DNA from: Escherichia coli
Lineage (GTDB): Bacteria; Pseudomonadota; Gammaproteobacteria; Enterobacterales; Enterobacteriaceae
Reading direction: 5' to 3' (one strand)
DNA: 64,000 nt
Assembly (NCBI RefSeq): GCF_003018255.1
Contig: NZ_CP027440.1
Shown: piece by piece, positions 7,365 through 62,664 of the stretch
Layout of the letters: each line of letters starts with the position of its first letter
How positions within the stretch are numbered: position 1 is the stretch's first letter
Notes under the pieces: model-generated
Told to the model about the DNA's origin: nothing
What the model saw: the letters and a program-made list of their open reading frames with translations, nothing else
Databases searched by the model: none
Translations under genes and position numbers: made by a program

Positions 7365-8567
7365 TTAACTGGCTTTTTTAATATGCGGAAGGTCGAACGC
7401 TTTGCGTAGCGCCCGAACAAACGCTTTATCGTGGCAGATAGTTTTGCCTGGGCTGTCAGAAAGTTTCGCCACTGGTTTACCGTTACACTCTACCAACTTA
7501 ATGACAATATTCAGGGGTTTTACCTGGGGGATATCGCAGGTCAGGCGAGTCCCAATACCAAAACTTAATTGCACGCGGGAAGAGAAGTGGCGGTATAGCT
7601 CAACCGCTTTGCGTAAATCCAGATTGTCAGAGAAAACCAGCGTTTTACTCTGTGGATCAATTCCCAGCTTTTCATAATGTGCAATGGCTTTTTCACCCCA
7701 TTCAACCGGGTCACCAGAGTCATGGCGCAGGCCCTGATAGCGACTGGCGAACTCGACACCGAAATCTCGCAGGAAAGCATCCATAGTGATGCAGTCGGTT
7801 AACGCAATGCCAAGTTGGTCGGGATACTCTTCCAGCCAGGCAGCAAGTGCAGCTCGCTGGCTGTTGGCTAGATCCGGGCTGATTTGCTGATGCGCCTGGA
7901 ACCATTCGTGTGCCTGTGTTCCCATCGGCGTGAGGGAAAGCCGACGCGCCAGATCGTAGTTGCTGGTGCCCACGAACCAGGATTCCTGTTGCAGACGTTT
8001 CACGATGGTTTCTTGTACTTCACGAGAAAAACGTCGGCGGGTGCCAAAATCCATCAGATGGAAGCGCGACATATCAAGACCGGCGGTTAATGCCGAGAAG
8101 TCGGCTAATTTGCTTTCCAGCGTGTCGAGGGCTTGCGCAACGTCGGCCTGCGGTGAGCGATAGCGATGTACCATTTCACTGATAACCGCCAGCAAAGGAA
8201 CTTCCCAGAGGATGACTTCACGCCACGGGCCGCTTAAACGAATATCCAGCTTGCCATTATCGTTGGACACGGTGACTTGTTCCGGGTTAAAGCGGAACTC
8301 GCGTAGCCAGTTAAGATAGTCGGCCTTAAAGAAAGGCAGGGCAGAGAGCCACTGATATTCATCATCCTGCAGGCGCAGGTACTGCATCGCCTGAACCTGT
8401 TCACGAATAGCATCGGCATAAATACCCAGCAGATCGTCACCTCGGCAACGAAACTCCGCCGCGACATGCACATCGTAATAGTGATGAAACACGGCTTGCT
8501 GCATATGCAACTTATAAGCATCTGTATCCAGCAACGAGTGCAGAACAGGAGAAGCGAATTGTGTCAT
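7365..8567 (-). CDS. pncB: nicotinate phosphoribosyltransferase
   Basis: ORF track 7365..8615; start at ATG giving [20 protein letters not shown]. Confidence 0.95.
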
Positions 8568-8596
8568 AGGTGCGCAGTAGCGTCCTCGTACAGGAG

Positions 8597-8614
8597 CGTT
8601 TAGTACAATAAACA
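8597..8614. promoter_or_regulatory. putative NadR operator (NAD box) in pncB promoter
   Basis: inverted repeat cGTTTA-N6-TAAACA about 30 bp upstream of pncB start; resembles TGTTTA-N6-TAAACA. Confidence 0.5.
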
Positions 8615-8832
8615 TCTTCAGGAACTGCTGGAGTATACCTTGTTTCGCAATTTATTGAACCCCGATCACACCATATGCCACCTTTCTGGTCGATGGCATT
8701 ACGCGGTGTATGTTATAAAAATGTAGCAATAAAGGCGTTTGTACCTGAAAAGATGAAGATTCTGCATAGCGCGATTTACGCAACAGGAATAGACTGAACA
8801 CCAGACTCTATAAAAGATGCTAAAGGTTATTT

Positions 8833-11445
8833 ATGACTCAACAGCCACAAGCCAAATACCGTCACGATTATCGTGCGCCGGATTACCAGATTACTGATAT
8901 TGACTTGACCTTTGACCTGGACGCGCAAAAGACGGTCGTTACCGCGGTCAGCCAGGCTGTCCGTCATGGTGCATCAGATGTTCCGCTTCGTCTCAACGGC
9001 GAAGACCTCAAACTGGTTTCTGTTTATATTAATGATGAGCCGTGGACCGCCTGGAAAGAAGAAGAGGGCGCACTGGTCATCAGTAATTTGCCGGAGCGTT
9101 TTACGCTTAAGATCGTTAATGAAATTAGCCCGGCGGCGAATACTGCGCTGGAAGGGCTTTATCAGTCAGGCGATGCGCTTTGCACCCAGTGTGAAGCCGA
9201 AGGTTTCCGCCATATTACGTATTATCTCGACCGCCCGGATGTGCTGGCGCGTTTTACCACCAAAATTATTGCCGATAAAACCAAATATCCCTTCCTGCTT
9301 TCCAACGGTAACCGCGTTGCGCAAGGTGAACTGGAAAATGGACGTCATTGGGTACGGTGGCAGGACCCGTTCCCGAAACCGTGCTACCTGTTTGCGCTGG
9401 TGGCAGGCGACTTTGATGTGCTGCGCGACACTTTCACCACGCGTTCTGGTCGCGAAGTAGCGCTGGAGCTGTATGTCGATCGTGGCAACCTTGATCGTGC
9501 GCCGTGGGCAATGACCTCGCTGAAAAACTCCATGAAATGGGATGAAGAACGCTTCGGCCTGGAGTATGACCTCGACATCTATATGATCGTCGCGGTGGAT
9601 TTCTTCAATATGGGCGCAATGGAGAATAAGGGGCTGAATATCTTTAACTCCAAATATGTGCTGGCCCGCACCGACACCGCCACCGACAAAGATTACCTCG
9701 ATATTGAACGCGTTATCGGCCATGAATATTTCCATAACTGGACCGGCAACCGTGTCACCTGTCGCGACTGGTTCCAGCTCAGTCTGAAAGAAGGTTTAAC
9801 CGTCTTCCGCGATCAGGAATTCAGCTCTGACCTTGGTTCCCGCGCGGTAAACCGTATCAATAATGTGCGCACCATGCGCGGATTGCAGTTTGCAGAAGAC
9901 GCCAGCCCGATGGCGCACCCAATTCGCCCGGATATGGTCATTGAAATGAACAACTTCTACACCCTGACCGTTTACGAGAAGGGCGCGGAAGTGATTCGTA
10001 TGATCCACACTCTGCTTGGCGAAGAAAACTTCCAGAAAGGGATGCAGCTCTATTTCGAGCGTCATGATGGTAGCGCAGCGACCTGTGACGACTTTGTGCA
10101 GGCGATGGAAGATGCGTCGAATGTCGATCTTTCCCATTTCCGCCGTTGGTACAGCCAATCCGGCACGCCGGTTGTGACTGTCAAAGACGACTACAATCCG
10201 GAAACTGAGCAGTACACCCTGACCATCAGCCAGCGCACGCCAGCTACGCCGGATCAGGCAGAAAAACAGCCGCTGCATATTCCGTTTGCCATCGAACTGT
10301 ATGATAACGAAGGCAAAGTGATCCCGTTGCAGAAAGGCGGTCATCCGGTGAATTCGGTGCTGAACGTCACCCAGGCTGAACAGACCTTTGTTTTTGATAA
10401 TGTCTACTTCCAGCCGGTGCCTGCGCTGCTGTGCGAATTCTCTGCGCCAGTGAAACTGGAATATAAGTGGAGCGATCAGCAACTGACCTTCCTGATGCGT
10501 CATGCGCGTAATGATTTCTCCCGTTGGGATGCGGCGCAAAGCCTGCTGGCAACCTACATCAAGCTAAACGTCGCCCGTCATCAGCAAGGGCAGCTGCTGT
10601 CTCTGCCGGTGCATGTGGCTGACGCTTTCCGCGCGGTGCTGCTCGATGAGAAGATTGATCCAGCGCTGGCGGCAGAAATCCTGACGCTGCCTTCTGTCAA
10701 TGAAATGGCTGAACTGTTCGATATCATCGACCCGATTGCTATTGCCGAAGTACGCGAAGCACTCACTCGTACTCTGGCGACTGAACTGGCGGATGAGCTA
10801 CTGGCTATTTACAACGCGAATTACCAGAGCGAGTACCGTGTTGAGCATGAAGATATTGCAAAACGCACTCTGCGTAATGCCTGCCTGCGCTTCCTTGCTT
10901 TTGGTGAAACGCATCTGGCTGACGTGCTGGTGAGCAAGCAATACCATGAAGCAAACAATATGACCGATGCGCTGGCAGCGCTTTCTGCGGCGGTTGCTGC
11001 ACAGCTGCCTTGCCGTGACGCGCTGATGCAGGAGTACGACGACAAGTGGCATCAGGATGGTCTGGTGATGGATAAATGGTTTATCCTGCAAGCCACCAGC
11101 CCGGCGGCGAATGTGCTGGAGACGGTGCGTGGCCTGTTGCAGCATCGCTCATTTACCATGAGCAACCCGAACCGTATTCGTTCGTTGATTGGTGCGTTTG
11201 CGGGCAGCAACCCGGCAGCGTTCCATGCCGAAGATGGCAGCGGTTACCAGTTCCTGGTGGAAATGCTTACCGACCTCAACAGCCGTAACCCGCAGGTGGC
11301 TTCACGCCTGATTGAGCCGCTGATTCGCCTGAAACGTTACGATGCCAAACGTCAGGAGAAAATGCGCGCGGCGCTGGAGCAGTTGAAAGGGCTGGAAAAT
11401 CTCTCTGGCGATCTGTACGAGAAGATAACTAAAGCACTGGCTTGA
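8833..11445 (+). CDS. pepN: aminopeptidase N (M1 family)
   Basis: 870 aa; GAMEN and HEYFHNWTGN zinc-binding motifs visible. Confidence 0.97.
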   Translation: MTQQPQAKYRHDYRAPDYQITDIDLTFDLDAQKTVVTAVSQAVRHGASDVPLRLNGEDLKLVSVYINDEPWTAWKEEEGALVISNLPERFTLKIVNEISPAANTALEGLYQSGDALCTQCEAEGFRHITYYLDRPDVLARFTTKIIADKTKYPFLLSNGNRVAQGELENGRHWVRWQDPFPKPCYLFALVAGDFDVLRDTFTTRSGREVALELYVDRGNLDRAPWAMTSLKNSMKWDEERFGLEYDLDIYMIVAVDFFNMGAMENKGLNIFNSKYVLARTDTATDKDYLDIERVIGHEYFHNWTGNRVTCRDWFQLSLKEGLTVFRDQEFSSDLGSRAVNRINNVRTMRGLQFAEDASPMAHPIRPDMVIEMNNFYTLTVYEKGAEVIRMIHTLLGEENFQKGMQLYFERHDGSAATCDDFVQAMEDASNVDLSHFRRWYSQSGTPVVTVKDDYNPETEQYTLTISQRTPATPDQAEKQPLHIPFAIELYDNEGKVIPLQKGGHPVNSVLNVTQAEQTFVFDNVYFQPVPALLCEFSAPVKLEYKWSDQQLTFLMRHARNDFSRWDAAQSLLATYIKLNVARHQQGQLLSLPVHVADAFRAVLLDEKIDPALAAEILTLPSVNEMAELFDIIDPIAIAEVREALTRTLATELADELLAIYNANYQSEYRVEHEDIAKRTLRNACLRFLAFGETHLADVLVSKQYHEANNMTDALAALSAAVAAQLPCRDALMQEYDDKWHQDGLVMDKWFILQATSPAANVLETVRGLLQHRSFTMSNPNRIRSLIGAFAGSNPAAFHAEDGSGYQFLVEMLTDLNSRNPQVASRLIEPLIRLKRYDAKRQEKMRAALEQLKGLENLSGDLYEKITKALA

Positions 11446-15319: not shown

Positions 15320-15887
15320 GGGCATTACCTCGCAGAGACAGAAGGTCAGGAACCTGAACATCGCGGCGGTGCAACGCCTGCCAGAAAGTTTCTAGCGCGG
15401 TATCAAGACGAGTTTGCAGATTTGGCGTGAACTGGGGTTTGTGTTGGTAATCAATTACTTGCGAGTCATCGGCAAACACGCCGTGCAGGATCTCCTGGGC
15501 TTTCAGCGTACTTAAAACTGGCTTAAGGGCATAATCGACCGCCAGCAGATGGGCCACGGTGCCGCCTGTCGCCAGCGGCAGCACCACTTTGCCTTGCAAC
15601 GCACGTTCTGGCAGCAGGTCGAGCAGGGTTTTCAGCGCGCCGGAATAGGCGGCTTTATACACAGGCGTGGCGACAATCAGCCCATCGGCCTGTTGCAGCT
15701 GTTCGGTGAAGGTCTTGAGTGCCGGACTATCGAAACGAGCATAAAGCAGATCTTCCGGGACGAAGTTTTGCAAATTCCAGTGATAAACCTCTACATCCAG
15801 GCCATTTAGTTTTTCCCGCGCATATTCCAGCAAGGAGCTGGAGCGAGAAGGAAAGCGAGGACTACCCGCCAGGGTGATGACACGCAT
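15312..15887 (-). CDS. ssuE: NADPH-dependent FMN reductase
   Basis: 191 aa; MRVITLAGSPRFPSRSS N-terminus. Confidence 0.95.
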   Translation of the reverse strand: MRVITLAGSPRFPSRSSSLLEYAREKLNGLDVEVYHWNLQNFVPEDLLYARFDSPALKTFTEQLQQADGLIVATPVYKAAYSGALKTLLDLLPERALQGKVVLPLATGGTVAHLLAVDYALKPVLSTLKAQEILHGVFADDSQVIDYQHKPQFTPNLQTRLDTALETFWQALHRRDVQVPDLLSLRGNAHA

Positions 15888-16123
15888 ACTCTCTCCTTAT
15901 AACCAATTGTTCTTGTTTTGTTAACATTGATAACAATTCGGTCAGTCTGACAGAGGGCGTCCGCGAGTCGAAATGATTTATCTGAGGAAGAAAAGCCAAA
16001 AAAAGCATAAAAAAAGCGCAATAAGAAAACGTTTGCTATTTATTGCCGCAGGTCAATTCCCTTTTGGTCCGAACTCGCACATAATACGCCCCCGGTTTGC
16101 ACACCGGGAATCCAGGAGAGTTC

Positions 16124-17134
16124 ATGTACTACCCCTTCGTTCGTAAAGCCCTTTTCCAGCTCGATCCAGAGCGCGCTCATGAGTTTACTTTTCAGCAATT
16201 ACGCCGTATTACCGGAACGCCGTTTGAAGCACTGGTGCGGCAGAAAGTGCCTGCGAAACCTGTTAACTGCATGGGCCTGACGTTTAAAAATCCGCTTGGT
16301 CTGGCAGCCGGTCTTGATAAAGACGGGGAGTGCATTGACGCGTTAGGCGCGATGGGATTTGGATCGATCGAGATCGGTACCGTCACGCCACGTCCCCAGC
16401 CAGGTAATGACAAGCCGCGTCTCTTTCGTCTGGTAGATGCCGAAGGTTTGATCAACCGTATGGGCTTTAATAATCTTGGCGTTGATAACCTCGTAGAGAA
16501 CGTAAAAAAAGCCCATTATGACGGCGTTCTGGGTATTAACATCGGCAAAAATAAAGATACGCCGGTGGAGCAGGGTAAAGATGACTATCTGATTTGTATG
16601 GAAAAAATCTATGCCTATGCGGGATATATCGCCATCAATATTTCATCGCCAAATACCCCAGGATTACGCACACTGCAATATGGCGAAGCGCTGGATGATC
16701 TCTTAACCGCGATTAAAAATAAGCAAAATGATTTGCAAGCGATGCACCATAAATATGTGCCGATCGCAGTGAAGATCGCGCCGGATCTTTCTGAAGAAGA
16801 ATTGATCCAGGTTGCCGATAGTTTAGTTCGCCATAATATTGATGGCGTGATTGCAACCAATACCACGCTCGATCGTTCTCTGGTTCAGGGAATGAAAAAT
16901 TGTGATCAAACCGGTGGCTTAAGTGGTCGTCCGCTTCAGTTAAAAAGCACAGAAATTATTCGCCGCTTGTCACAGGAATTAAACGGTCGCTTACCGATCA
17001 TCGGTGTTGGCGGCATTGATTCGGTTATCGCTGCGCGTGAAAAGATTGCTGCGGGGGCCTCACTGGTGCAAATTTATTCTGGTTTTATTTTTAAAGGTCC
17101 GCCGCTGATTAAAGAAATCGTTACCCATATCTAA
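16124..17134 (+). CDS. pyrD: dihydroorotate dehydrogenase (quinone)
   Basis: ORF track 16097..17134; start at ATG 16124 giving [21 protein letters not shown]. Confidence 0.95.
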
Positions 17135-17166
17135 TTATTTCTTCGAATTCCTCTTTATAAGATAAT

Positions 17167-17196
17167 CAGGGCTTTATTTTAAGCCCTGGTTGTTTT
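17167..17196 (+). terminator. rho-independent terminator of pyrD
   Basis: stem cagggctt-tatttt-aagccctg followed by ttgtttt. Confidence 0.7.
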
Positions 17197-17307
17197 ATAT
17201 TCATCGCTGTTGCTTATTTAGACATTTTGTACTTTTATTGTTGAGGTTATTAAGCGAAGCGACAATGGATTGTGTTGCTGCGGTTTTATAGGGTAGGGGA
17301 GAGGCAG

Positions 17308-17850
17308 ATGCGAATTAAACCAGACGATAACTGGCGTTGGTATTACGATGAAGAGCACGATCGAATGATGCTCGATTTAGCCAATGGTATGCTATTTCGC
17401 TCACGTTTTGCGCGCAAAATGTTGACTCCAGATGCCTTTTCTCCCGCAGGCTTTTGCGTTGACGACGCCGCGCTCTATTTCTCATTTGAAGAAAAATGCC
17501 GCGATTTTAATTTATCTAAAGAACAAAAAGCCGAACTGGTGCTTAATGCGCTGGTAGCAATTCGTTATCTCAAACCGCAAATGCCGAAAAGCTGGCATTT
17601 TGTTTCCCATGGTGAAATGTGGGTGCCCATGCCGGGCGATGCGGCCTGCGTTTGGTTGAGCGACACTCACGAGCAAGTCAATTTGCTGGTCGTTGAATCT
17701 GGCGAAAATGCCGCACTATGCCTGCTGGCACAACCCTGCGTTGTTATTGCGGGTCGCGCGATGCAGCTGGGCGACGCCATCAAAATCATGAACGACAGGC
17801 TGAAACCGCAGGTTAATGTTGACAGCTTCAACCTCGAACAGGCAGTCTAA
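17308..17850 (+). CDS. zapC: cell division protein ZapC (YcbW)
   Basis: ORF track 17272..17850; start at ATG 17308 giving [24 protein letters not shown]. Confidence 0.9.
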
Positions 17851-18956
17851 CGCGTCAGCTTAAGCGCAGTCTTCGGTACACAGCTACAGCAAAGAATGGT
17901 GCCATCATCGCCCATTGCTGATTTTTTCAGCGGCGTGACTTCGCCTTCTAAAAGCTGAACACGGCAACTTCCACAAATGCCCGCGCGGCAAGAATAAGGG
18001 ATACGAATTCCCTGATTTTCTAATTGCTCCAGCAACACCTGCTGGTTATTTCCACGAAATGCCTGTCCCTGCCAGTCAATATCTACATTTGCGTCCGGTT
18101 GTTGCGTGATGTTGACGGTATCATCAGCGGCGGCTGCGCCGTAAATTTTAGCCGGAGCCGTTGCCAGAACTTCCACCTCATCGCCAACGCGAATTACGCC
18201 GCTATTACGGGCAATTAAATTCTGACCAAAATCGACATCGCCGTTATCCTGGGCAGTGCGGAAAGATTGCAATGTTTTTAATGGTTCGCCTGCCGGATGT
18301 TTTTGCCCTTTTTCTGGACTGACGGTGGTGAAAATACAGCGGCTACAAGGTTTAACCACATCAAACACCACATCACCAATGCGAATCACTTTCCAGCTAT
18401 CTTCTTCCCAGGCTGACGCGCCGGAAACCACCAGATTGGGGCGGAATTGCTCCATTTTTACACTGGCCGGACAACGTTGTTGGAGATCACGTAACGAGGC
18501 TTCGTTAGCAAGAAGGTAAGGATAGCCATCAGCAAATGACAGGGGTACAGTGTTGTGGCGTTTCACGCGCCGCGTCATTTGTGGCCCCACCCAGCGCAAC
18601 TGCACTTCGCGGGAGAAAAATCCACTTAGCCATTTGTTGATCGCGTCTGGTGCAATTCGCGCGGTAAAATGTGTGCCCCAAACTTCGGTTGGTGCGTCTT
18701 GTGTGGCGAAATCAGCAAAACGAACATATGCGCTACTGCCATCTGGTGCGGTGAGATGCAAGCCATCATGCACAGGTGAAGGAGTAAACCGTACCATCTG
18801 GGGAAACTGGCGAGCGGTAATAAACGTACCGTCAGGTTCCGTGATCATAAAGATGCGATCGAAGGCCAGACCACTGACATCTGCCAGGGCATGTGTAAGA
18901 CCAATGCCGCGCATCGATTTAACAGGATGAATAAAAAGCCGGGTTAATGTCGCCAC
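17847..18956 (-). CDS. ycbX: MOSC-domain 2Fe-2S protein YcbX
   Basis: 369 aa; C-terminal ferredoxin-like cysteine cluster (CRAGICGSC). Confidence 0.9.
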
Positions 18957-53405: not shown

Positions 53406-55586
53406 TTACTCTTTCTCGGAGTAACTATAACCGTAATAGTTATAGCCGTAACTGTAAGCGGTGCTGGCGCGTTTAATCACACCATTGAGGATTGCGCCTT
53501 TAATATTAACGCCAGCCTGTTCCAGACGCTGCATTGACAAGCTCACCTCTTTGGCGGTGTTCAAGCCAAAACGCGCAACCAGCAGGCTGGTGCCGACAGA
53601 GCGTCCCACGACCGCAGCATCGCTCACCGCCAGCATCGGCGGCGTATCGACAATCACCAGATCGTAATGGTCGTTCGCCCATTCCAGTAATTGACGCATC
53701 CGATCGCGCATCAGCAGTTCAGACGGGTTAGGTGGCACCTGACCGCGAGTAATCACATCAAAGCCTCCTTTGCTAAAATGCTGGATCACTTTGTTGAGCT
53801 CATCTTTACCTGCCAGATATTCCGACAAGCCATGTTCATTACTCACGGTAAACAGGTTATGCGAATAACCACGGCGTAAGTCGGCATCAATAAATAACAC
53901 TTTTTGATCGGACTGGGCGATCACCGCTGCCAGAGTTGAACTGACAAACGTTTTACCACTGTCTGGCGTCGCACCGGTGATCATCAGAATATTATTCTCA
54001 GTCTCCATCATAGCGAAATGCAGACTGGTTCGTAGCGCACGTACGGCCTCCACAGCAGAATCCGCCGGGTTATCCACCGCCAGGAAGGGGATATTTTTAG
54101 TACGATGGCGCTGCTGATTAGAAAATAAATTTTTCTTACGCAGACGGGTACGTTTATCCAGCCACTCGGACATTGGGATAGTGGCATAAACGCTGATGCC
54201 GTGCTCTTCCAGTTGTTCCGGGGCTTCTACACCACGACGCAACATCGCACGCGCCAGCACGGCACCCACCGAAATAAACAGGCCAAGAATAAAACCAAGC
54301 ACCACATTCAACGCTTTTTTCGGTTTCACTGGCTGCGGCTGAGTGACTGCCGGGTCGATAATCCGCACGTTACCAATCGCACTGGATTTCGAAATACTCA
54401 ACTCCTGCTGGCGGTTAAGTAATTGCAGATATACCGCACGGCCCGCTTCTACGTCACGGCTTAAACGCAATACTTCCTGTTGAGTGGAAGGCATTGCCGA
54501 TACCCGCTTATTCAGGCGTTTGCGTTCTTGCTCCAGCGTCTGGCGTTTTTCCAGTAGCGCACGATAAGTTGGGTGATCTTTCTTGTACAGCTGGGAGATC
54601 TCTGCCTCGCGGAAGGTCAGCTCATTGAGTTGATTATCAACGTTAACAATCTGCTCAAGAACGGCTTTGGCTTCCAGGTTAAGGTCAACCGAATCGCGCT
54701 GTTGGCGATAAACGTTGAGTTTTTCTTCCGCCTGGTCCAGCTCGCTGCGTACTTCAGGCAACTGGCGCTGTAAGAACTCAAGGCTTTGTGAATCCTGCGC
54801 CGCCTGGCGAGCGATATTCTGTTGCAAATAGTTGTTAGCGATGCTGTTCAGAATACGGGTAATCAACTGGGGATCATCACCGGTCATGGTAAGTTCCAGC
54901 ATCCCGCTTTCTTTACTGCGTTCGCTAACGGTAAAGGTTTCCTGCAGGGCGTTAATCGCTTCCAGTTCGGTGCGCTGGCTCAGGACAAACTGTGTTCCTG
55001 CTTTGGCCTTAATGTCCGCGATAGTCAGCGCAACGCCGTCTTTTTCCAGACGCTGGCCGACCATACCATTGACGGTGAACCCTTCACCTTCCAGCGTATA
55101 GTGGCCGTTTTCCCCAACTGTGAGTGTCAGTTGCTGATCCTGACCATTCAGTTGTGGGATGTGCATCCAGCTGATCGCCAGCTCACCTGGTTTCTCTTTG
55201 GTTAATCTCGCCCAGCCGCGACCCACAATAGGAAAATACTTCTGCTCAACCATGTCGCGCAGATTCAGTTCAGCAATGGTTTTACCGAGAATCATGCGCG
55301 ATTGCAGCAGTTGGATCTCCGGTGCTGACTCGGGCGATGAGTTAGGGATCATATCGCTCAGGCCGCTGAGAATGGCGTTGCCCTGTTTCTGCTCAACCTG
55401 GACCAGAGTATCTGCCTGATAAATTGGCGTGCTTAACAGCGAGTAAGCGACAGCGATCAGCGTGAACAACGCGGTCACGCTGACAATAAACTTACGGTGA
55501 TCCCATAACTCGCCGACCAGACGAAGCAGATCGATCTCATTTTCCTGAGTGCTGCCTGGTGGCGTATTCATATTTTTAGTTGTCAT
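53406..55586 (-). CDS. etk: BY-kinase (protein tyrosine autokinase / capsule co-polymerase) Etk
   Basis: 726 aa; Wzc-like with C-terminal Tyr-rich tail (YSYGYNYYGYSYSEKE) and Walker A (GATPDSGKT). Confidence 0.93.
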   Translation of the reverse strand: MTTKNMNTPPGSTQENEIDLLRLVGELWDHRKFIVSVTALFTLIAVAYSLLSTPIYQADTLVQVEQKQGNAILSGLSDMIPNSSPESAPEIQLLQSRMILGKTIAELNLRDMVEQKYFPIVGRGWARLTKEKPGELAISWMHIPQLNGQDQQLTLTVGENGHYTLEGEGFTVNGMVGQRLEKDGVALTIADIKAKAGTQFVLSQRTELEAINALQETFTVSERSKESGMLELTMTGDDPQLITRILNSIANNYLQQNIARQAAQDSQSLEFLQRQLPEVRSELDQAEEKLNVYRQQRDSVDLNLEAKAVLEQIVNVDNQLNELTFREAEISQLYKKDHPTYRALLEKRQTLEQERKRLNKRVSAMPSTQQEVLRLSRDVEAGRAVYLQLLNRQQELSISKSSAIGNVRIIDPAVTQPQPVKPKKALNVVLGFILGLFISVGAVLARAMLRRGVEAPEQLEEHGISVYATIPMSEWLDKRTRLRKKNLFSNQQRHRTKNIPFLAVDNPADSAVEAVRALRTSLHFAMMETENNILMITGATPDSGKTFVSSTLAAVIAQSDQKVLFIDADLRRGYSHNLFTVSNEHGLSEYLAGKDELNKVIQHFSKGGFDVITRGQVPPNPSELLMRDRMRQLLEWANDHYDLVIVDTPPMLAVSDAAVVGRSVGTSLLVARFGLNTAKEVSLSMQRLEQAGVNIKGAILNGVIKRASTAYSYGYNYYGYSYSEKE

Positions 55587-55605
55587 CGTATTTTATAAAC
55601 TCAAA

Positions 55606-56052
55606 TTACCGGCTGAGGCGCTTCGCCCATTCCTGACTGGCGCGCTCCAACATACCGTAGACATGTTCAAATGCGTCCTGACTTTTACGATAGGGATCCG
55701 GGATCTCTTTCTGTTCCAGCCATTGCCCAAACAGCATTGTCTTCCCGCGGACCTCGGGAGCGATTGCGGTAACCTGAGCAATATGTTCCGACTCCATTGC
55801 CAGAATCAGATCGTAATTTCGTGCCATCTCAGCAGTGAGCTTACGTCCGGCATGTCCTTCAAGAGATACGCCATGATTTGCGGCAACATCTGCTGCTGTC
55901 GCATCTGCAGGGTGTTTTACCAGACCATGAACACCTGCCGATTTGACTTTTACGCCTGGCAGACGTTTACGCAGCAAGCGCTCGCCAATGGGCGAACGGC
56001 AAATGTTGCCGGTACAAACCACCAGGATTGAGTTAAATTTTAGTTGGGCCAT
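55606..56052 (-). CDS. etp: low-molecular-weight phosphotyrosine protein phosphatase Etp
   Basis: ORF track 55606..56133; start giving [24 protein letters not shown] (CX5R P-loop). Confidence 0.92.
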
Positions 56053-57179
56053 GTTTGAATCCACCGTGAAGTCTCTGTCAGGTCGTGCACCCCGGAAATC
56101 GTCGGTACCAGCAGAGAAATCACACGGTTCCAACGAGCCAGCGGCGCGGTAGTGACATAAACAATGTCGTAAGGTTCAAGCTGGAATTCCGTTCCGAGTA
56201 TCATTGCCGATGCGTCCTTCGCATTCAGCTGATAAATATTGGCGATTTTGCCATTCTGCTTGTTTTGCGTTGCACGAATAACAAAAATCCCCGTCGCATC
56301 AGCGACATCCTGATTCATACCCTCAGCGTTACCCAGCGCTTCCGCCAGGGTCATACCGCTGCGGTCCATTTTCAGCGTGCTCTGTTTACCCACTTCACCC
56401 ATCACGAAGACTTTCAGATCATCGTTGCGCGGAATAAATAAAATATCGCCCGGGTGCAGCAGTTTGTTCTGGCGCAAGTCGCCACGCTGCATCAGCGCAT
56501 AGAGGTTCACTTTGGTCTTTACGCCATTCTGGGTGAGCACCACGTTGCGCCAGTCTGCATCTGCGGTCAGACCGCCCGCGGCGTTAATCGCATCCATGAT
56601 GGTCAGAGGAATATTGGTAATCGGCTGCTGACCCGATTTGCTGACTTCGCCGGTGACGTACGCTTTTTGCGAGCGGAACGCCGCGACGCTGACATCGACT
56701 TGCGGGCTTTCAATGACTGAATCCAGACGCGCTGTAATCTCGTTGCGTACCTGGGTAAGCGTTTTCCCGGCCACTTTCAGGCGACCAATATAAGGGTAGA
56801 AAATTGCACCATCAGCGTTAACCCAGTTGCCGGTATCACTGGCGCTACGGTATTGCCCTGCGGGGGTGGTTAGTTCCGGGTGATCCCAGACCGTAACCAT
56901 CAACACATCCCCAATGCCGATACGATATTCATAGTTCGCGATTTGCTGCTCCAGCTCCGGATTAGCCTGCGACATAATCGGTTTGGCGCGCAGCTGATCA
57001 ATCAATCCTGGCGTGACGGGATAGATATTGACCATTTTGTCCAGGTCATACTGATTGTCAGGTAGTTCAATGACATCCTTGTTACTGGTCGATAAATTCT
57101 GACCAGGAACAAGGGTACATGCTGTCAAAGACAGAACAGCCAATGTCAGTACCGAAAACTTAAAAATGTTCTTTTTCAT
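56040..57179 (-). CDS. gfcE: Wza-like outer-membrane polysaccharide export lipoprotein GfcE
   Basis: ORF track 56040..57200; start giving [21 protein letters not shown] lipobox. Confidence 0.92.
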
Positions 57180-57224
57180 TGGTTTATATTTATCAGTCAA
57201 TGTAATGTTATGAATTACGTCAGG

Positions 57225-59321
57225 TTATTGTCCAACCGGTACTTCTCGCTCTGCCGTCATTGGATAGAGCTGGTATTTACGTGACAGCATTTGTCCACCA
57301 TCACGCGTCAATGGTGTCCACGAAACCACCGCGCGGTTGCGGTTAGGTCCAATGGTCATCAAGTCGAACGGAATCGAGATATAAAAACCTTTACTAAAGC
57401 CGCCTTCGCCGTAGTCATCTTTTGATACGTTACTGATTGCCGCCCATACCCCTACTGCCACGCCGCTGTCAAAGCGTTTGGCGACGTCGATCGTTGCACC
57501 TTTATCTTTTGCCAGATATTGCCCAACGCTAAGTTTCATCAGTACGCCATTGAGCGTCGGCGGGTTCCAGTAAGCCGTCACGAAACCTGTTGGCGTAGAA
57601 TAATCGGTGAAGCGCATCATGTTGTCCCAGTCACGCTGCTTCACGTAGTTAACGTCCACACCCAGCGCCCAGCTGGCATCTAGCGGGCGATAAAGCAGCT
57701 CGGAACCGACACCGGCATACATCGTTTCCAGATAACCGCCATACACCTGGCCATAGAAACCGTTGCCTAAGTCGGCAAAGTAGTTCGCTTGCAAGTTGTT
57801 GAGATAAACGTCATTGCGAACGTAATCACGGATATGCGTGCGCACGCGGGGCAGGGTAGAGTCCGCGGGTAATAGCGAAGACTTAAACTTGTCGTAGTTA
57901 TTGTAAATATTGGTGAAAATACCGCCATCAAGCAGCAGGTGGTCGGTAAACCAGTAGCGGGCGCTGGACATCAGCCCCAGCTGGAACATATAGAAATCTT
58001 CCGGGCCGCCCAGCGACTGTGAAAGTGTTGGGTTGAAAGAGTAGCTAAAGCGATCTTCACGAATACGGTAGCCCCGACCAAAGGCAGAAAGATCTTCAGC
58101 TTCAACACGTTGTTGTTGCAGTGGCTCTGATTGACCAGGCGCTGTACCGGCCAGTTGTTTGCGCAGGCTGGCTACGTCGGTTTCGGTAGTCACCATCGCC
58201 ATATGCTCGCGCTTTTGCGTCACACTAATCTTCTCAACGCCTTGCGGCAGGTTATTCACCAGAATCCGGTTGGCACGATCGACCGCTTCGCGAGAGTCAC
58301 GGTATTTGTATTGCTGACCAGACATATACAGCGTCTTATCGCGTAGCTGAATTTCTGGCGCGTCAAAGCCCGCGTTATACTTCAGGGCGGTAAGTTGGTT
58401 TGCTACCGTGGTGTACTGCAATCCTTCAGATTCCGGCGCAGGTTGATATGCCGGTTTTGGCGTATCGCGCAGGGCAGGGCGCAGATCGTTGAAATTGGTC
58501 CGTAACGTGAAGCCAAACATCAACGTGTTACCGCGTTCATAACTCAGGTTGAGATCTGCCCAACTGGCAGCGCGATAAACTGCGCCGACGTTGAAATGGC
58601 TTGCCTGCGGCAATTTGCCCGCAAAATCATTCTGGTAATTGTTGCCATCGTATTCGAGTTTCAGACGCAGAGGATTCCACGGCGTTTGATACTCAATACC
58701 GCCCAAAATAGAGGCTGGACCACGAAAGATATCGCTAAAGCTGATATCTCCCGCATCGTGAGACTCTGCGCGATGGCAATATTTATCGCTTACCCGACAA
58801 AACGGGTTGGTAATATTGCCCGCATTACCGGCGTAGCCCCAGGCCATCCCGAGGGTGAAATCGAACGGGCCCGCTTGCTTGCTGGCCACCAAATATTCAC
58901 CGTCAAACAGACCCGTACCAGCAATATCACGTTTACCAAACGCCACTTGCGGTAGCCAGTAACCTTCTTCCCACAGGCGAAGTTTAAAATCGAAAGATTT
59001 GTCTTTGTATGACTGATCGCCGCTGAAATCTTCCCACTGGCTATATTTGCGTGTGCGCACATCCGTATAACGAATGGTGCCTTCCAGCCATGGGAACAGC
59101 GCCACGGAGGTGGAGTAGAAACGGTATTGATCGTTATCCCGGTAGTTTACGCTGAATTCACCTTCCGGTGCGATGCGCGCATTTGGCATCTGCAACAATC
59201 CTGTGCCGCCAAAGTCTGATTGCGACGAACCCAGCGGATCCGGATAGGTTAATACTTCAGCATGACAGGCACTGGAGACGGCAATGGCCAGGCAGCTTAA
59301 AAGATAAGAGTTCTTCTTCAT
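57225..59321 (-). CDS. gfcD: outer membrane beta-barrel protein GfcD (YmcA)
   Basis: 698 aa with signal peptide; sequence recognised. Confidence 0.9.
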
Positions 59322-60067
59322 CAGTCAGGAACACGTTGCGTTAAAACAGACACAATCTGGTCATTTAAATCAGCATATTTTTCGGGCAGTACATGCGCAG
59401 AAAAGCCTAACCAAAGCTGGCTGCCAGGCGGTGGTTCCACATGTCTTTTATTCCACAGGGCAACAGGGGCGACGACAGCCTCACCCTCAGGCGTAATCAC
59501 CATAACGTTATTCTTGTCCGCGCCTGCAAGACGGGTGTGATCTTGCAGATAATCGGTAACGCTACGGCCTGCCAGCCAGGGCAATTGCCCAGCCCCAGAA
59601 ACCGCACCTAGCAGAGTAATAGTCACCGGACGCTGTACGGTATAGAGCGTATAGTCCCCGACCAGCGGGGGATTGCTGTTCTCATCCACTCGTACAAAAT
59701 CAGGGTCCAGTTTGACCGGTAAGCGACCAGTGATATTGAGATTGAGTAACTGCTGGCGCACGGATTTAATCGTTGCCACCACATCGTCGTCAGCTTCTGC
59801 TTCCCAGGAAGCAAGCTGTGCCATGACATGTTGGTAGTCTTTAAGCGCTTTAGCTTTCGCCGCAGAGTCGGTCAGCAAGGCACCAGGCCACCAGAGGCGA
59901 TCGCGCAGTTGCGGTTGTGTCACCAACTGGACAACATTTTCCACGGGGCCAACGGAAAGTGTCTGTTGTTCGCCAGGCAGATAAATAGTCACCGTTCCTT
60001 GCGCAAAGGCATGGGGTGTCATTACGTAAAGTACGCTGGCAATGAAATACGACTGTAATTTATTCAT
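59321..60067 (-). CDS. gfcC: periplasmic protein GfcC (YmcB)
   Basis: 248 aa with signal peptide; operon position. Confidence 0.9.
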
Positions 60068-60708
60068 GGTGCGGGTTTAAGAAACGTCATTTCTACGGGA
60101 ATAACCCCTGCGCCTAACATTTGCCGACTTTGACGAACCTGGCCACTAGCCGAATCGACCCAGAATGTGTTTTGCCACTGTTTTTCTGGCAGCGTGGAAG
60201 TCACCTCTTCCTGCCAGACATTACACAGCACATCGCGACCCGCAATATTCAGCGTCTCTAATCCAGCAAAGGAAAAAGTGGAACTCAGGGTCGCAGAGCG
60301 AAAATGGTTGTCTTCACTCCAGAGAATATCGCGCGTCCAGCGGCTGCCGTCTTTTATTGCCAGCGCGTTACGCAGAGGGTCCTGCCCGGAATTTGTCACT
60401 TCCAGCAGATTATTATTAAGTTTGACGGTTTTTAAAAGACGTCCATTGTGGGTAACCAGCATGGCGTTATCCTGGGATAACCATTTGCTTTGTTCTTGTT
60501 CTATATATCCCAGTACCACAAAGATTCGTTGCCCTTCATTAAGGCGTAAATACATCGTGGAATAAGGCAACGCCTGGATCTGCTGATCCGCTACGGTGAT
60601 ATCCTGATTATCGAAAAGGCTGGCGCGAAATGTATCGACCATACTTTGCTGGCTGTGCGTACATCCCGCAAGAAATAGTGCGAAAATCGATAAAATAAGA
60701 GGGCGCAC
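60064..60708 (-). CDS. gfcB: lipoprotein GfcB (YmcC)
   Basis: 214 aa; lipobox LAGCTHS. Confidence 0.9.
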   Translation of the reverse strand: MRPLILSIFALFLAGCTHSQQSMVDTFRASLFDNQDITVADQQIQALPYSTMYLRLNEGQRIFVVLGYIEQEQSKWLSQDNAMLVTHNGRLLKTVKLNNNLLEVTNSGQDPLRNALAIKDGSRWTRDILWSEDNHFRSATLSSTFSFAGLETLNIAGRDVLCNVWQEEVTSTLPEKQWQNTFWVDSASGQVRQSRQMLGAGVIPVEMTFLKPAP

Positions 60709-60814
60709 CTTTAATCCTTGAAAGGTTAATTAAAAAAATGCAAATCTCTAAAGCCCGGTACGAATATCGCAACCGGGTATCATTTAACTTTAATTTTGAC
60801 GCGTTAAAGCAGTA

Positions 60815-61120
60815 TTAGCGCGTAGTGGACGTGGTGGTTGAGGTGTTATGAGAACCGCCATCGCCACTGTCATTTGCTGCAACTACTGCCAACGTCGCCA
60901 CACCAACAGCCGTTGCCACACCGACAACCGTCGCCGTGCCGACAGCGCCAGCAGCCACGCCACCAGTGGTAGCAGCAGTCGTGGTTGCACCTGTAGTGGT
61001 CGTTGTGGTGCCAGTAGTACCCGTCGTTGCCTCAGTCCCGTTTGCTGCTTCAGGGGCAGCAAATGCAGCTGGCGTCGTCAACATGAAGGCCATAAGGATT
61101 GCAGAAAGCTTGTGTTTCAT
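60815..61120 (-). CDS. gfcA: Thr-rich secreted protein GfcA (YmcD)
   Basis: ORF track 60815..61138; start giving MKHKLSAILMAFMLTTPAAFA; Thr/Gly/Ala/Val low-complexity body. Confidence 0.88.
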   Translation of the reverse strand: MKHKLSAILMAFMLTTPAAFAAPEAANGTEATTGTTGTTTTTTGATTTAATTGGVAAGAVGTATVVGVATAVGVATLAVVAANDSGDGGSHNTSTTTSTTR

Positions 61121-61560
61121 AACTTTTCCTTTATTCATCGCATGGACAATACGTACGCTTGAGATCAGGATTATCTACTTTGAGTATAACATCCTTGTGA
61201 AATCTCCCTTTCCTCATACCGCCAGCACTATATACTGCGGGTGGGAAAGGCGCGCAGAGGGAAATATAAGATTGTTAACTATTCCCCTCTGGAAATACGA
61301 CTTGTGAGCATAAGATAAATCTTAGCAAAATACAAATTAAAGATAAGAAAATTGTTAAGAAAGCTATTAACTATTGTTGGTAATATAGTTTCAAGTGGTA
61401 CTATAACTGGCTGTTAAGTGGCATTTATAACTATTAGGTGCAGAGATATTCGCTTAAATGGATTTGTTGCCCGGTGAAAAAGTAACTTGCGTTATAATTT
61501 ATGGTGTTGACTATTGAGCTATTCCAATAAAACCAGCCAACTTTAAACAAGCAACTCATA

Positions 61561-61773
61561 TTAAGAGAGATAAACATTTGCCGCTGTTGGTCCTCGCAGG
61601 CCATTTACGCGGCAAAATTCCACGCGTAATCCTGGTATAAGCACTTCTGCGTCGCGGGGAGTGAATGCGGAAATATGGACCTGGACTTCTTTACGACCGT
61701 CGGAGGGGATAATGAATCCTTTGCCGCTTTTGCGATCAAAGGTTTTGACAATTCCTGTCATTTTACGGGACAA
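61561..61773 (-). CDS. cspH: cold-shock-domain protein CspH
   Basis: 70 aa; [23 protein letters not shown]. Confidence 0.92.
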
Positions 61774-62058
61774 ACAAATTCCTTACTGAAAATACTGCGC
61801 TGCACTATACGGGGTTAATAAAATAAAGCCAGCGATATTTAAGACCGCCGGACGGCTAAAATAAAATTTGCTTAATCTCAATTATCATGCGTTAATAGCT
61901 GCGTCGGTTTGAAAGACAGACAGCATACAAAGTAGTTTACTAAAGCAGTTCTCATTATCAGGCATTATCCCCTTCTTTTGAGTCTCTCTCCTGAACACTA
62001 AGTAGTTTCTGTACTAAAGCCCTGTTTGCCGAAAGGCCCAAAATGAAGGAAGTAAAAT

Positions 62059-62271
62059 ATGTCTAATAAAATGACTGGTTTAGTAAAATGGTTTAACGCA
62101 GATAAAGGTTTTGGCTTTATCACTCCTGATGATGGCAGCAAAGACGTTTTCGTCCATTTCACCGCCATCCAGAGCAATGAATTCCGCACGCTGAACGAAA
62201 ATCAGAAAGTTGAATTTTCTATTGAGCAGGGGCAACGTGGTCCCGCGGCAGCGAACGTTGTTACGCTCTAA
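62059..62271 (+). CDS. cspG: cold shock protein CspG
   Basis: 70 aa; [23 protein letters not shown] (RNP1 motif). Confidence 0.95.
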
Positions 62272-62470
62272 GGTTGCCGTTATTACTCCACATCTCCATT
62301 TCCGCTGTCCATGTTGTCATGGTTCACAGTACCGCACATCGGCATTCGATGTGACGGAGCGAAATCCTTTAGGGGCAAAGTGTATTTTTTGTAAATCGAC
62401 GATGATCACCTTTGATAACGTCGCGCTGCAAATACGCACTGACCATGCGCCGCTGGATTTCACAAAATAA
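62237..62470 (+). CDS. ymcE: small Cys-rich protein YmcE; start codon uncertain (non-ATG)
   Basis: ORF track 62210..62470; contains ...[21 protein letters not shown]...; no in-frame ATG near 5' end, GTG at 62237 chosen. Confidence 0.5.
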
Positions 62471-62664
62471 TATCAGGCTCCCTCGTGGAGCCTTTTTTAT
62501 ATCTGCCTTATTTTTCTTCAACGCTGTATGTATAGTAAGCGATAACCTGTTGATTATTGAATCTTTCGGGGAGATGGCTTATAACATTTCTTACCTGACC
62601 AGGGTACCGGGAACCAACACCTTACTGGCGTGTTGCTGTCTTTCAAGACCAGAAGAGGTTAACA

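Follow-up and report, generated by a model that had tools for sequence, protein, structure and literature searches.

Group 4 (O-antigen) capsule production in Escherichia coli requires all seven genes of its operon, according to one report (PMC4368438). In another (PMC3853201), an in-frame deletion of gfcA leaves EPEC E2348/69 unencapsulated and gfcA alone, supplied in trans, restores the capsule. The gfcA gene, the threonine-richness of its product and the idea that this product is glycosylated have all been published already; to these we add, for the locus studied here, the gene identity and operon context, the composition of the protein, its non-repetitive coding, the purifying selection acting on it, its near-invariant length and the synteny of its family.

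The closest described systems resemble gfcA in part. The simple-sequence contingency loci of Neisseria, Haemophilus and Campylobacter share with it short repeated DNA motifs in a surface-related gene and occasional products of slippage. In contrast to these loci, gfcA has no perfect repeat tract (its longest tandem is 10 nt, two units of 5), all its length changes are in frame at an allele frequency of about 0.2%, and the protein is under purifying selection. Mucin-like, PEP-CTERM and GlyGly-CTERM proteins share with GfcA a signal peptide, Thr/Ser-rich low complexity, a C-terminal hydrophobic segment and a location in a polysaccharide export locus; the resemblance to the PEP-CTERM and GlyGly-CTERM proteins is a lead only. 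GfcA differs from them in several respects: Pro-rich PTS character is missing, as is a PEP or other sorting motif, its hydrophobic segment is not followed by a basic cluster, and neither a cognate sortase nor a cognate glycosyltransferase was identified; an NCBIfam scan, in a library assumed to hold the relevant models, gave no PEP-CTERM or GlyGly-CTERM sorting-signal match. Glycine-zipper proteins and functional amyloids (CsgA; FapC-FapF) share with GfcA a Gly/Ala/Val-rich, beta-branched hydrophobic stretch with a Gly every 6 residues, and the likeness to FapC-FapF extends to the associated outer-membrane barrel, the N-terminal barrel of GfcD resembling FapF (PMC8346858, PMC9603273). GfcA differs from the functional amyloids in that there is no evidence of fibre formation, and the glycine-zipper, curli and Fap models of Pfam did not match it even at E <= 10.

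The stretch of DNA analysed (64,000 nucleotides, hereafter the window) carries an intact seven-gene gfcABCDE-etp-etk group 4 capsule operon, with gfcA as its first gene, positioned between cspH and gfcB:

60815-61120, minus strand: gfcA (ymcD) coding sequence, 101 codons plus a TAA stop, matched to the 306-bp RefSeq CDS of WP_001299283.1.
61127-61131, minus strand: AAGGA Shine-Dalgarno-like motif, 6 nt 5' of the ATG at 61120, read from the sequence.
60064-60708, minus strand: gfcB, YjbF-family lipoprotein (Pfam PF11102, E = 2.7e-69), directly downstream of gfcA.
59321-60067, minus strand: gfcC (Pfam PF20616 and PF06251).
57225-59321, minus strand: gfcD, YjbH-family outer-membrane protein, an intact 698-aa open reading frame (Pfam PF06082, E = 9e-269).
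53406-57200, minus strand: gfcE, etp and etk, intact open reading frames, assigned by positional match to the annotated syntenic locus.

The sequence-only reading had named the gene gfcA, and the coding sequence, the accession and the synteny all agree with this. The peptide that it quoted lies verbatim in a 107-aa open reading frame (60815-61138, minus strand), of which GfcA begins at the second ATG (61120), the upstream in-frame ATG having no ribosome-binding site. The tract that had drawn attention, 60880-61040, corresponds to residues 27-81 of the 101-aa protein. The window DNA is 100% identical over 592 bp to a genome whose coding sequence is WP_001299283.1, for which the RefSeq product name is "threonine-rich inner membrane protein GfcA", and gfcA of O157:H7 carries the same protein accession. 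The window protein differs by 2 residue substitutions from the K-12 allele and by 2 residues from that of E2348/69. K-12 has an IS1 between gfcA and cspH, which the window lacks; otherwise there is no substantive difference from known E. coli GfcA. A promoter and terminator scan of 60700-61600 returned no sites. The sole Rfam match in 60000-62600 was the cspA thermoregulator, an element that precedes cspG and overlaps its start; it is unrelated to the gfcA tract.

That the mature protein would be rich in T, G, A and V was borne out by its composition. After the predicted cleavage, its 80 residues comprise 26 T, 17 A, 13 G and 9 V, that is 81% TGAV (86% including Ser), with an entropy of 2.76 bits and a Thr enrichment of binomial p ~5e-14 for an assumed background of 5.4%. 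The suggested likeness to a mucin did not hold for the protein as a whole, which is not one uniform mucin-like sequence but a succession of distinct segments:

61058-61120, minus strand: predicted Sec signal peptide (residues 1-21), MKHKLSAILMAFMLTTPAAFA; its cleavage motif is A-F-A|A and a lipobox Cys is absent (sequence and hydropathy).
60965-61057, minus strand: Thr/Gly/Ala hydrophilic linker, residues 22-52, 16 of its 31 residues being Thr (composition and hydropathy).
60875-60964, minus strand: Gly/Ala/Val/Thr hydrophobic segment, residues 53-82, GGVAAGAVGTATVVGVATAVGVATLAVVAA, Kyte-Doolittle 19-residue maximum 2.16.
60818-60874, minus strand: acidic, then Thr/Ser-rich C-terminal tail, residues 83-101, NDSGDGGSHNTSTTTSTTR, from alignments of GfcA-type and YjbE-type sequences.

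From the motif in its sequence, the signal peptide would be cleaved after residue 21. The linker is the sole part of GfcA that varies in length, E. coli having 31 residues, E. albertii 24-26 and Cedecea/Enterobacter 13-16, whereas the hydrophobic core is invariably 30 residues long across the 10 GfcA-type sequences, in which the linker ranges from 13 to 31. This core holds three hexapeptide repeats (AVGTAT, VVGVAT and AVGVAT) encoded by an imperfect 18-bp repeat at 60893-60946, a direct-repeat family of 78-100% identity that Tandem Repeats Finder also detects. The tail is the counterpart of a motif conserved across the family, [DN]G[SA]-x-NT-Thr run-T[RQ], and shows no amino-acid change among five E. 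coli alleles. In an AlphaFold2 run on a 6-sequence alignment, the linker had a pLDDT of 34-40 and no secondary structure, and a helix was placed at residues 57-87 with low confidence; with a mean pLDDT of 46.5, this model is too weak for any structural claim. A sequence search of the PDB gave no solved-structure relative. A Pfam scan at E <= 10 gave nothing meaningful, the "New_glue" match being compositional noise, as was the only NCBIfam result, a sub-threshold "WGxxGxxG family" match of 17 bits against a cutoff of 35.

In 77 of 80 loci of Enterobacterales, Escherichia gfc-type loci included, a small gene whose exported product is rich in T/S/G/A/V lies directly upstream of gfcB/yjbF. These 77 products have a signal peptide and 77-90% T/S/G/A/V beyond residue 22; 44 of them are exactly 80 aa long and 63 contain a T7 run. 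Their longest Thr run is written with two to four different codons in 74 of the 77 loci, every T7 run among them. The first gene of the paralogous four-gene module yjbEFGH encodes YjbE (PF11106, "exopolysaccharide production protein YjbE"). Like GfcA, YjbE has hardly any basic residues and consists to 83-90% of T/S/G/A/V; its signal peptide is followed by a middle rich in Gly/Ala/Val and by the C-terminal motif [DN]G[SA]-NT-Thr run. Unlike GfcA, it is 80 aa long and Ser-rich, with no membrane-competent segment (Kyte-Doolittle 1.24 in E. coli). The window GfcA had no match to PF11106 at E <= 10, whereas 18 of 18 YjbE/Pantoea-type sequences and 5 of 10 GfcA-type proteins from other genera matched it (best E = 3.6e-6 among the latter); low-complexity filtering is a likely cause of the missing match for E. 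coli GfcA. BLASTP gave no alignment of GfcA with YjbE, and hhalign aligned their profiles over columns 1-24 only (the signal peptide; probability 96.9%) and nothing beyond. Homology of the two proteins is thus plausible through intermediate sequences, synteny and architecture. A phmmer search of 1.84 billion representatives returned 15 matches, three of them useful distant relatives, and sequence search is poor for this family. Word-indexed protein searches, with GfcA and with an alignment of the family as queries, yielded for the most part variants that were frameshifted, truncated or chimeric, the canonical 101-aa sequences being absent from the collection; as such searches are unfit for a census, lengths were taken from BLAST of E. 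coli genomes and from synteny.

The claim that the tract is a codon-level repeat of ACC, ACT, GGC and GCA does not survive inspection of the coding. All four Thr codons are mixed in gfcA, ACG being the commonest (ACG 12, ACT 7, ACC 7, ACA 2), and Gly and Ala are each divided between two main codons (GGT 6 and GGC 6; GCA 10 and GCT 8). The longest perfect tandem repeat measures 10 nt (GTGGC, present twice in one place), and exact repeats of a word do not exceed 8 nt. Only two arrays in the gene, both of them imperfect, are detected by Tandem Repeats Finder:

60893-60935: imperfect array, 18 bp x 2.4, 84% identity.
60965-61000: imperfect array, 15 bp x 2.4, 76% identity.

When, as a null model, synonymous codons were exchanged at random between identical residues in 2,000 shuffles, the longest exact repeat was equal to or above that observed in 98.5% of the shuffles, and no repeated 9-mer was observed as compared with a mean of 2.2. 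With its mixed codons, its lack of long exact repeats and synonymous shuffles that are equally or more repetitive, the tract owes its repetitiveness to its amino acids and not to its DNA. Among five E. coli alleles, pN/pS is approximately 0.1-0.25, and gfcA of O157:H7 has 5 synonymous differences yet encodes an identical protein. Taken together with the conserved, mixed-codon Thr runs of the family and the near-fixed length, this low pN/pS indicates that the composition of GfcA is selected at the protein level.

We therefore propose, as the probable explanation, that the tract makes up the body of GfcA, an accessory protein of small size that is exported by Sec and serves the machinery of the group 4 (O-antigen) capsule, and that selection on the protein, not slippage of the DNA, maintains its low complexity. 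GfcA would consist of four parts: a signal peptide, a disordered Thr/Gly/Ala spacer, a fixed 30-residue Gly/Ala/Val core and a conserved C-terminal motif, acidic and Thr-rich. The length of the spacer differs among species and is held nearly constant within E. coli, where rare microhomology-mediated replication slips may add or remove 15-21 bp of it, in frame and sparing the core and the tail.

The location of this chain is a matter of finer balance. According to the annotation, GfcA would be a single-pass (type I) inner-membrane protein with a G/A/V anchor, a periplasmic Thr-rich linker and a cytoplasmic tail. In agreement with its RefSeq name, the Kyte-Doolittle maximum of the segment exceeds the 1.6 threshold, its length is fixed at 30 residues, SOSUI predicts one transmembrane segment (PMC10299036), AlphaFold places its low-confidence helix at residues 57-87, and the homologue of Vibrio superstes has a strongly hydrophobic segment (Kyte-Doolittle 2.85). 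Against an anchor, the core sums to approximately +1 kcal/mol on the Hessa scale, which is marginal, and the would-be cytoplasmic flank is acidic (NDSGDGGSH) with no basic residues, contrary to the positive-inside rule, the only basic residue of the mature chain being the C-terminal Arg. Furthermore, the Kyte-Doolittle 19-residue mean reaches 1.6 or more in only 19 of the 77 family members; the other 58, E. coli YjbE among them, have no membrane-competent segment and keep the same C-terminal motif, which must therefore be periplasmic in them. A conventional anchor is for these reasons possible but rather doubtful. Since the paralogue YjbE shares the motif without such a segment, we lean, with modest confidence, towards a mature GfcA chain that lies wholly on the periplasmic side, its hydrophobic core being either sheltered by another protein (the LolA-like lipoprotein GfcB, for instance) or inserted into one leaflet of a membrane.

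A further reading makes GfcA a mucin-like carrier, whose Thr/Ser-rich parts would be O-glycosylated, possibly with O-antigen, and which GfcD would export to anchor or nucleate the capsule. The 30% Thr, the signal peptide, the disordered linker, the Thr-rich C-terminal motif kept across the family and the strict synteny of gfcA/yjbE with gfcBCD/yjbFGH are all in agreement with such a role, and Larson et al. have raised the same speculation on glycosylation (PMC8592465). The resemblance of the N-terminal barrel of the two-barrel GfcD to FapF, an exporter of amyloid subunits (PMC8346858, PMC9603273), and the LolA-like fold of GfcB (PMC8592465) point in the same direction. However, the literature found contains no experimental sign of GfcA modification, some cells of an EPEC waaL mutant still form capsule (PMC3853201), which speaks against WaaL-dependent attachment as a necessity, and modelling of GfcD favours a lipid-anchored polysaccharide as cargo (PMC11494523). 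The linker holds 16 Thr in 31 residues and the tail 10 Ser/Thr in 19, the central 30 residues are hydrophobic, and there is 1 Pro in the mature protein, whereas mucin domains typically have Pro. We know of no general O-oligosaccharyltransferase in E. coli. On this evidence a carrier role seems unlikely. A related and speculative proposal, to which we likewise assign a low probability, is that GfcA and YjbE are not anchors but the protein cargo, or co-substrate, of GfcBCD and YjbFGH: of a disordered, Thr-rich and nearly uncharged chain, GfcB would carry the core across the periplasm, and the conserved Thr-run C-terminus would then enter the FapF-like barrel of GfcD or pass through it, so as to form a surface tether, possibly glycosylated, for the otherwise unanchored O-antigen capsule.

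The model of the sequence-only reading, in which a slippage-prone codon repeat makes GfcA length a contingency-like character of the strain, fares much worse. The comparison of gfcA length that it called for was carried out on 5,426 complete E. coli genomes, of which ~3,600 (3,603) contain the tract. By blastn, 2,529 of the 3,603 (70%) are within one base (>=99% identity) of a single allele, the K-12 linker allele, and only 7 are below 90% identity to it. In evenly spaced samples of genomes, the length of the tract was the same in 59 of 59, 59 of 59 and 38 of 38 (~150 in all), a result at odds with a strain-variable length. Large indels were found in 8 genomes among the matches listed, out of ~3,600 carriers (~0.2%), and an indel of at least 6 bp is possible in at most 45 genomes (1.2%), the 90-95% identity band, with its 38 records, being uninspected. 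These counts rest on sampled rows and identity bands, and the band of 95-99% could conceal indels of 3 bp. Megablast identity bands were unreliable for counting indels, duplications being reported as two high-identity pieces; a megablast query with the 21-bp-duplication allele was uninformative for this reason, while blastn with the K-12 allele gave usable bounds. The length of gfcA is consequently near-invariant in E. coli without being identical everywhere.

The exceptions are three independent events, all in frame and all within a 34-bp spot of the Thr/Gly linker. An allele 15 bp shorter (2 genomes) has a deletion between 5-bp ACCAC repeats, an allele 18 bp longer (5 genomes) has a perfect tandem duplication, and an allele 21 bp longer (1 genome) has a perfect tandem duplication flanked by 7 bp or more of homology. 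The window itself has the standard length, and these alleles come from other E. coli genomes; in the coordinates of the window, their sites are:

60986-61019, minus strand: linker indel spot, with the 15-bp deletion site at 60986-61000, the 18-bp unit at 61002-61019 and the 21-bp unit at 60998-61018.

In both genomes with the 15-bp deletion, an IS5 also lies some 100 bp upstream of gfcA, and the operon that holds this allele may therefore have been disturbed already. The anticipated slippage-type changes thus occur, and in frame, but they are rare. The three events, the two imperfect arrays and a linker length that varies among Escherichia species and among genera speak for the slippage model. 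They are outweighed by the lack of any perfect repeat above 10 nt, by a repetitiveness no greater than that of synonymous shuffles, by the near-constancy of length in the genomes and by the T7 runs of YjbE, which hold their length across genera despite codon drift; moreover, indels that are all in frame provide no on/off switching. The model is largely refuted, and we consider it very improbable.

That the gfcA frame is a compositional accident, or that the opposite strand encodes the functional product, might be suggested by the long antisense open reading frames overlapping the tract (60848-61162 and 60936-61307) and by the absence of a Pfam match of its own for canonical GfcA. This reading has next to no probability in view of the Shine-Dalgarno motif and signal peptide of gfcA, a pN/pS far below 1 in the minus-strand frame and a homologous small gene that occupies this position in 77 of 80 loci from several genera, and it is already refuted by these conservation data together with the complementation of the in-frame deletion by gfcA alone (PMC3853201).

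GfcA is needed for a capsule associated with virulence. With its length near fixed, the gene fails as a strain-typing character. Its tract illustrates that a low-complexity sequence can look like a slippage repeat and yet be held at the protein level, as mixed codons, a length kept despite codon drift and a pN/pS below 1 indicate. A small first gene is near-universal in the gfcABCD/yjbEFGH modules and its product mostly has no membrane-spanning segment, which gently calls into question the label "inner membrane protein".

The interval 60880-61040 falls within a minus-strand open reading frame (60815-61138) in which the second ATG, located at 61120 and preceded by AAGGA, serves as the functional start. 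Read from there, gfcA has 101 codons and matches the 306-bp RefSeq CDS of WP_001299283.1, annotated as 'threonine-rich inner membrane protein GfcA'. Its neighbours are as follows.

Genes around gfcA in the window
Upstream of gfcA: cspH and cspG (cspG at 62059-62271)
Downstream of gfcA, minus strand: gfcB (PF11102)
Downstream of gfcA, minus strand: gfcC (PF20616 and PF06251)
57225-59321, downstream of gfcA, minus strand: gfcD (PF06082), an intact 698-aa frame
Beyond gfcD, minus strand: gfcE, etp and etk, intact frames at matching positions

Since the genes from gfcA to etk are intact and the IS1 insertion of K-12 is not present upstream of gfcA in the window, the group 4 capsule operon is uninterrupted here and in its wild-type form. 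Strain 2012C-4221 (L001; L numbers denote comparison loci in other genomes) shares the 592 bp surrounding gfcA with the window at 100% identity. The window is nevertheless from a different strain, since the divergence over 15.3 kb is 1.5%. In 2012C-4221 (locus 8517-10613, 15324-18067), the annotation gives gfcD an internal stop and marks torS as frameshifted; the gfcD of the window is intact. Two plus-strand frames overlap gfcA in antisense (60848-61162 and 60936-61307; 104 and 123 aa, Pro/Val/Ala- or Arg/Cys-rich); they are the expected shadow of GC-rich low-complexity coding and are without support as genes. An Rfam cspA thermoregulator element (61903-62325, plus strand, 155 bits) lies upstream of cspG and overlaps its start, as expected in a cold-shock gene cluster, and has no relation to the GfcA tract.

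The peptide quoted in the sequence-only reading is an exact match to the translation of the minus-strand frame, and the composition described there is borne out: after the predicted cleavage between A-F-A and A, T, G, A and V make up 81% of the 80 mature residues, 26 of them being Thr (binomial p ~5e-14 for an assumed background of 5.4%), with an entropy of 2.76 bits. The tract is heterogeneous and consists of three distinct parts.

Parts of GfcA after the signal peptide
Residues 22-52: hydrophilic Thr/Gly/Ala linker, 16 Thr
Residues 53-82: hydrophobic Gly/Ala/Val/Thr segment (core) of 30 residues, Kyte-Doolittle maximum 2.16, three hexapeptide repeats
Residues 83-101: tail, acidic then Thr/Ser

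The same reading took the underlying DNA for a codon-level repeat, a description which does not hold. The commonest Thr codon is ACG, ahead of ACC and ACT, and the four codons for Thr are all intermixed; perfect tandems do not exceed 10 nt and exact repeated words 8 nt, while TRF finds 2.4-copy arrays only, of 76-84% identity. When synonymous codons were shuffled among identical residues, 98.5% of the shuffles equalled or exceeded the real gene in repetitiveness. The repeat belongs to the protein, not to the DNA.

To establish whether tract length varies among strains, as had been proposed, gfcA was compared in 5,426 complete E. coli genomes. The 592-bp region has matches in 3,673 of them and the tract is present in approximately 3,604; in evenly spaced samples of the ranking, match and query had the same span in all full-length rows (38/38, 59/59 and 59/59). 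A census by gapped blastn with the linker region of the K-12 allele (129 bp) gave the following distribution.

Identity of the linker region to the K-12 allele
99% or more (indel impossible): 2,529 genomes
95-99%: 1,029 genomes
90-95%: 38 genomes
Below 90%: 7 genomes

A protein search returned an E. coli GfcA variant lacking five residues, and querying with this 15-bp deletion allele exposed eight genomes carrying indels. The deletion is found in two genomes (96 aa), a perfect 18-bp tandem duplication in five (107 aa), including at least two of type O169:H41, and a perfect 21-bp tandem duplication in one (RMDEC465, 108 aa). The deletion sits between 5-bp ACCAC repeats and the 21-bp duplication has flanking homology of at least 7 bp, both of them features typical of replication slippage. 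The three types are all in frame, fall in the linker within the equivalent of window positions 60986-61019, and leave the hydrophobic core and the tail intact. Known large indels thus concern ~0.2% of tract carriers, with an upper bound of ~1.2% for indels of at least 6 bp, whereas 3-bp indels are bounded by sampling alone, at roughly <2%. Slippage events therefore exist, but they occur seldom, keep the frame and all map to a single spot, and the interpretation of the tract as slippage-prone and strain-variable in length is mostly refuted.

Variation of another kind is far commoner at this locus, namely absence of the region and insertion sequences at its 5' end. About one third of the complete genomes (roughly 1,750-1,820 of 5,426) have no match at all to the gfcA region. 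IS1 (in K-12 and others), IS5 and IS3 are found at the 5' end of the gene: the two genomes carrying the 15-bp deletion both have IS5 ~100 bp upstream, IS3 truncates or abuts gfcA in some E. coli, and IS1 occupies the position of gfcA in one genome, an IS1-associated loss. The gfcA-cspH intergenic region (61121-61560) has been hit repeatedly by IS elements in E. coli (loci L002, L004, L007, L015, L097 and L098) and is IS-free in the window. Five matches to the gfcA region are on records labelled as plasmids.

Among five alleles (window, K-12, O157:H7, E2348/69 and one other), pS was 0.02-0.08 and pN 0-0.019, and the O157:H7 allele differs from that of the window by five synonymous changes with an identical protein. 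Variability is highest in the linker, where pN/pS is still ~0.23; neither the signal peptide nor the tail shows any amino-acid change, and the replacements exchange A, T and V exclusively.

Sequence searches perform poorly on GfcA: 15 matches were obtained among 1.84 billion representatives, and the canonical 101-aa protein (window/O157 and K-12 alleles) has no exact match in a word-indexed collection of 15 billion proteins, where mainly frameshifted, truncated or chimeric versions are returned. Low-complexity proteins seem poorly represented in that collection, and negatives for such proteins need caution. Synteny was therefore used, and 80 Enterobacterales loci were recovered with a GfcB/YjbF alignment. 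In 77 of them, a small signal-peptide ORF with 77-90% T/S/G/A/V past residue 22 lies directly upstream of gfcB/yjbF; for two of the three others, <250 bp of upstream sequence is present. Exactly 80 aa are encoded by 44 of the 77 genes (YjbE type: Citrobacter, Enterobacter, Salmonella, Lelliottia and others), and 63 have, close to the C-terminus, a Thr run whose length is exactly seven. The longest Thr run uses 2-4 codons in 74 of the 77 loci, every seven-Thr run included, and in 51 its longest same-codon stretch is two. The length of the run is thus conserved while its codons drift, the opposite of a slippage-driven tract. YjbE (L037-L096) combines 80 aa with exactly seven C-terminal Thr in most of the Enterobacteriaceae genera sampled, the codons of the run differing by genus, an unusually strict conservation for a homopolymeric run. 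The sole large expansion seen in the family is in Mangrovibacter (L043, L066 and L075), where YjbE has 111 aa, with an insert of ~30 residues after the signal peptide carrying repeated GFGQ/SFGQ/VGFGH-like motifs. A contig of 'Chryseobacterium sp. 18061' (L048) bears a Citrobacter-type yjbE-yjbF whose YjbE is one residue off that of 'Citrobacter sp. 18056' (L045) from the same study; this assembly is probably mislabelled or contaminated.

Linker length is 31 residues in E. coli and in a cryptic clade of Escherichia; E. albertii has 24-26, while Cedecea and Enterobacter have 13-16. The hydrophobic core has 30 residues in 10/10 GfcA-type proteins. All groups have in common a motif at the C-terminus in which [DN]-G-[SA]-x-N-T precedes the Thr run and T-[RQ]. 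E. coli YjbE, confirmed by exact look-up adjoining yjbFGH, matches Pfam PF11106 (E = 5e-33), which gives weak matches in 5/10 GfcA-type proteins (best E = 3.6e-6) and none in E. coli GfcA; BLASTP and hhalign find no similarity between GfcA and YjbE past the signal peptide. In position and architecture GfcA thus resembles YjbE, and in sequence through intermediates only.

Group 4 capsule needs all seven genes of the operon (PMC4368438). EPEC E2348/69 with an in-frame deletion of gfcA has no capsule and an altered O-antigen ladder; supplying gfcA by itself in trans corrects both defects, and the gene is strongly transcribed (PMC3853201). The protein has been called 'entirely uncharacterized' (PMC11494523) and 'predicted to be natively unstructured' (PMC8346858). 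Overexpressed from the ASKA library, YmcD (GfcA) survived three rounds of a D-alanine export screen, with a lower intracellular D-Ala that was not statistically significant (PMC10299036); this effect may stem from the hydrophobic segment disturbing the membrane, not from transport.

The annotated arrangement, a bitopic inner-membrane protein, fits the Kyte-Doolittle score and fixed 30-residue length of the core, the single transmembrane segment given by SOSUI (PMC10299036) and a strongly hydrophobic Vibrio homologue. We nevertheless lean slightly against it, because the core is only marginally hydrophobic on the Hessa scale (~+1 kcal/mol), its would-be cytoplasmic flank is acidic with zero basic residues, and 58 of the 77 proteins in the family, YjbE among them (Kyte-Doolittle 1.24), are without a membrane-competent segment yet have the same C-terminal motif, which must be periplasmic in these 58. 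The AlphaFold model of GfcA (pLDDT 46.5) is too low in confidence to arbitrate. On our reading, the linker is probably a flexible periplasmic spacer, with its composition and approximate length under selection, and the constant-length G/A/V core and Thr-run tail would provide the interaction surfaces. The mucin or glycosylation reading, a pre-existing idea, is speculation, and the partial capsule still formed by a waaL mutant (PMC3853201) speaks against an obligatory WaaL-dependent attachment.

Taken together, the observation on the tract holds good for the protein and was overstated for the DNA, and neither the gene nor its unusual composition is new. Mildly new are the rare natural length alleles of gfcA, the Thr-run lengths kept across the family in runs of mixed codons, and the case that 'inner membrane' may be an unsuitable label for the GfcA/YjbE family.
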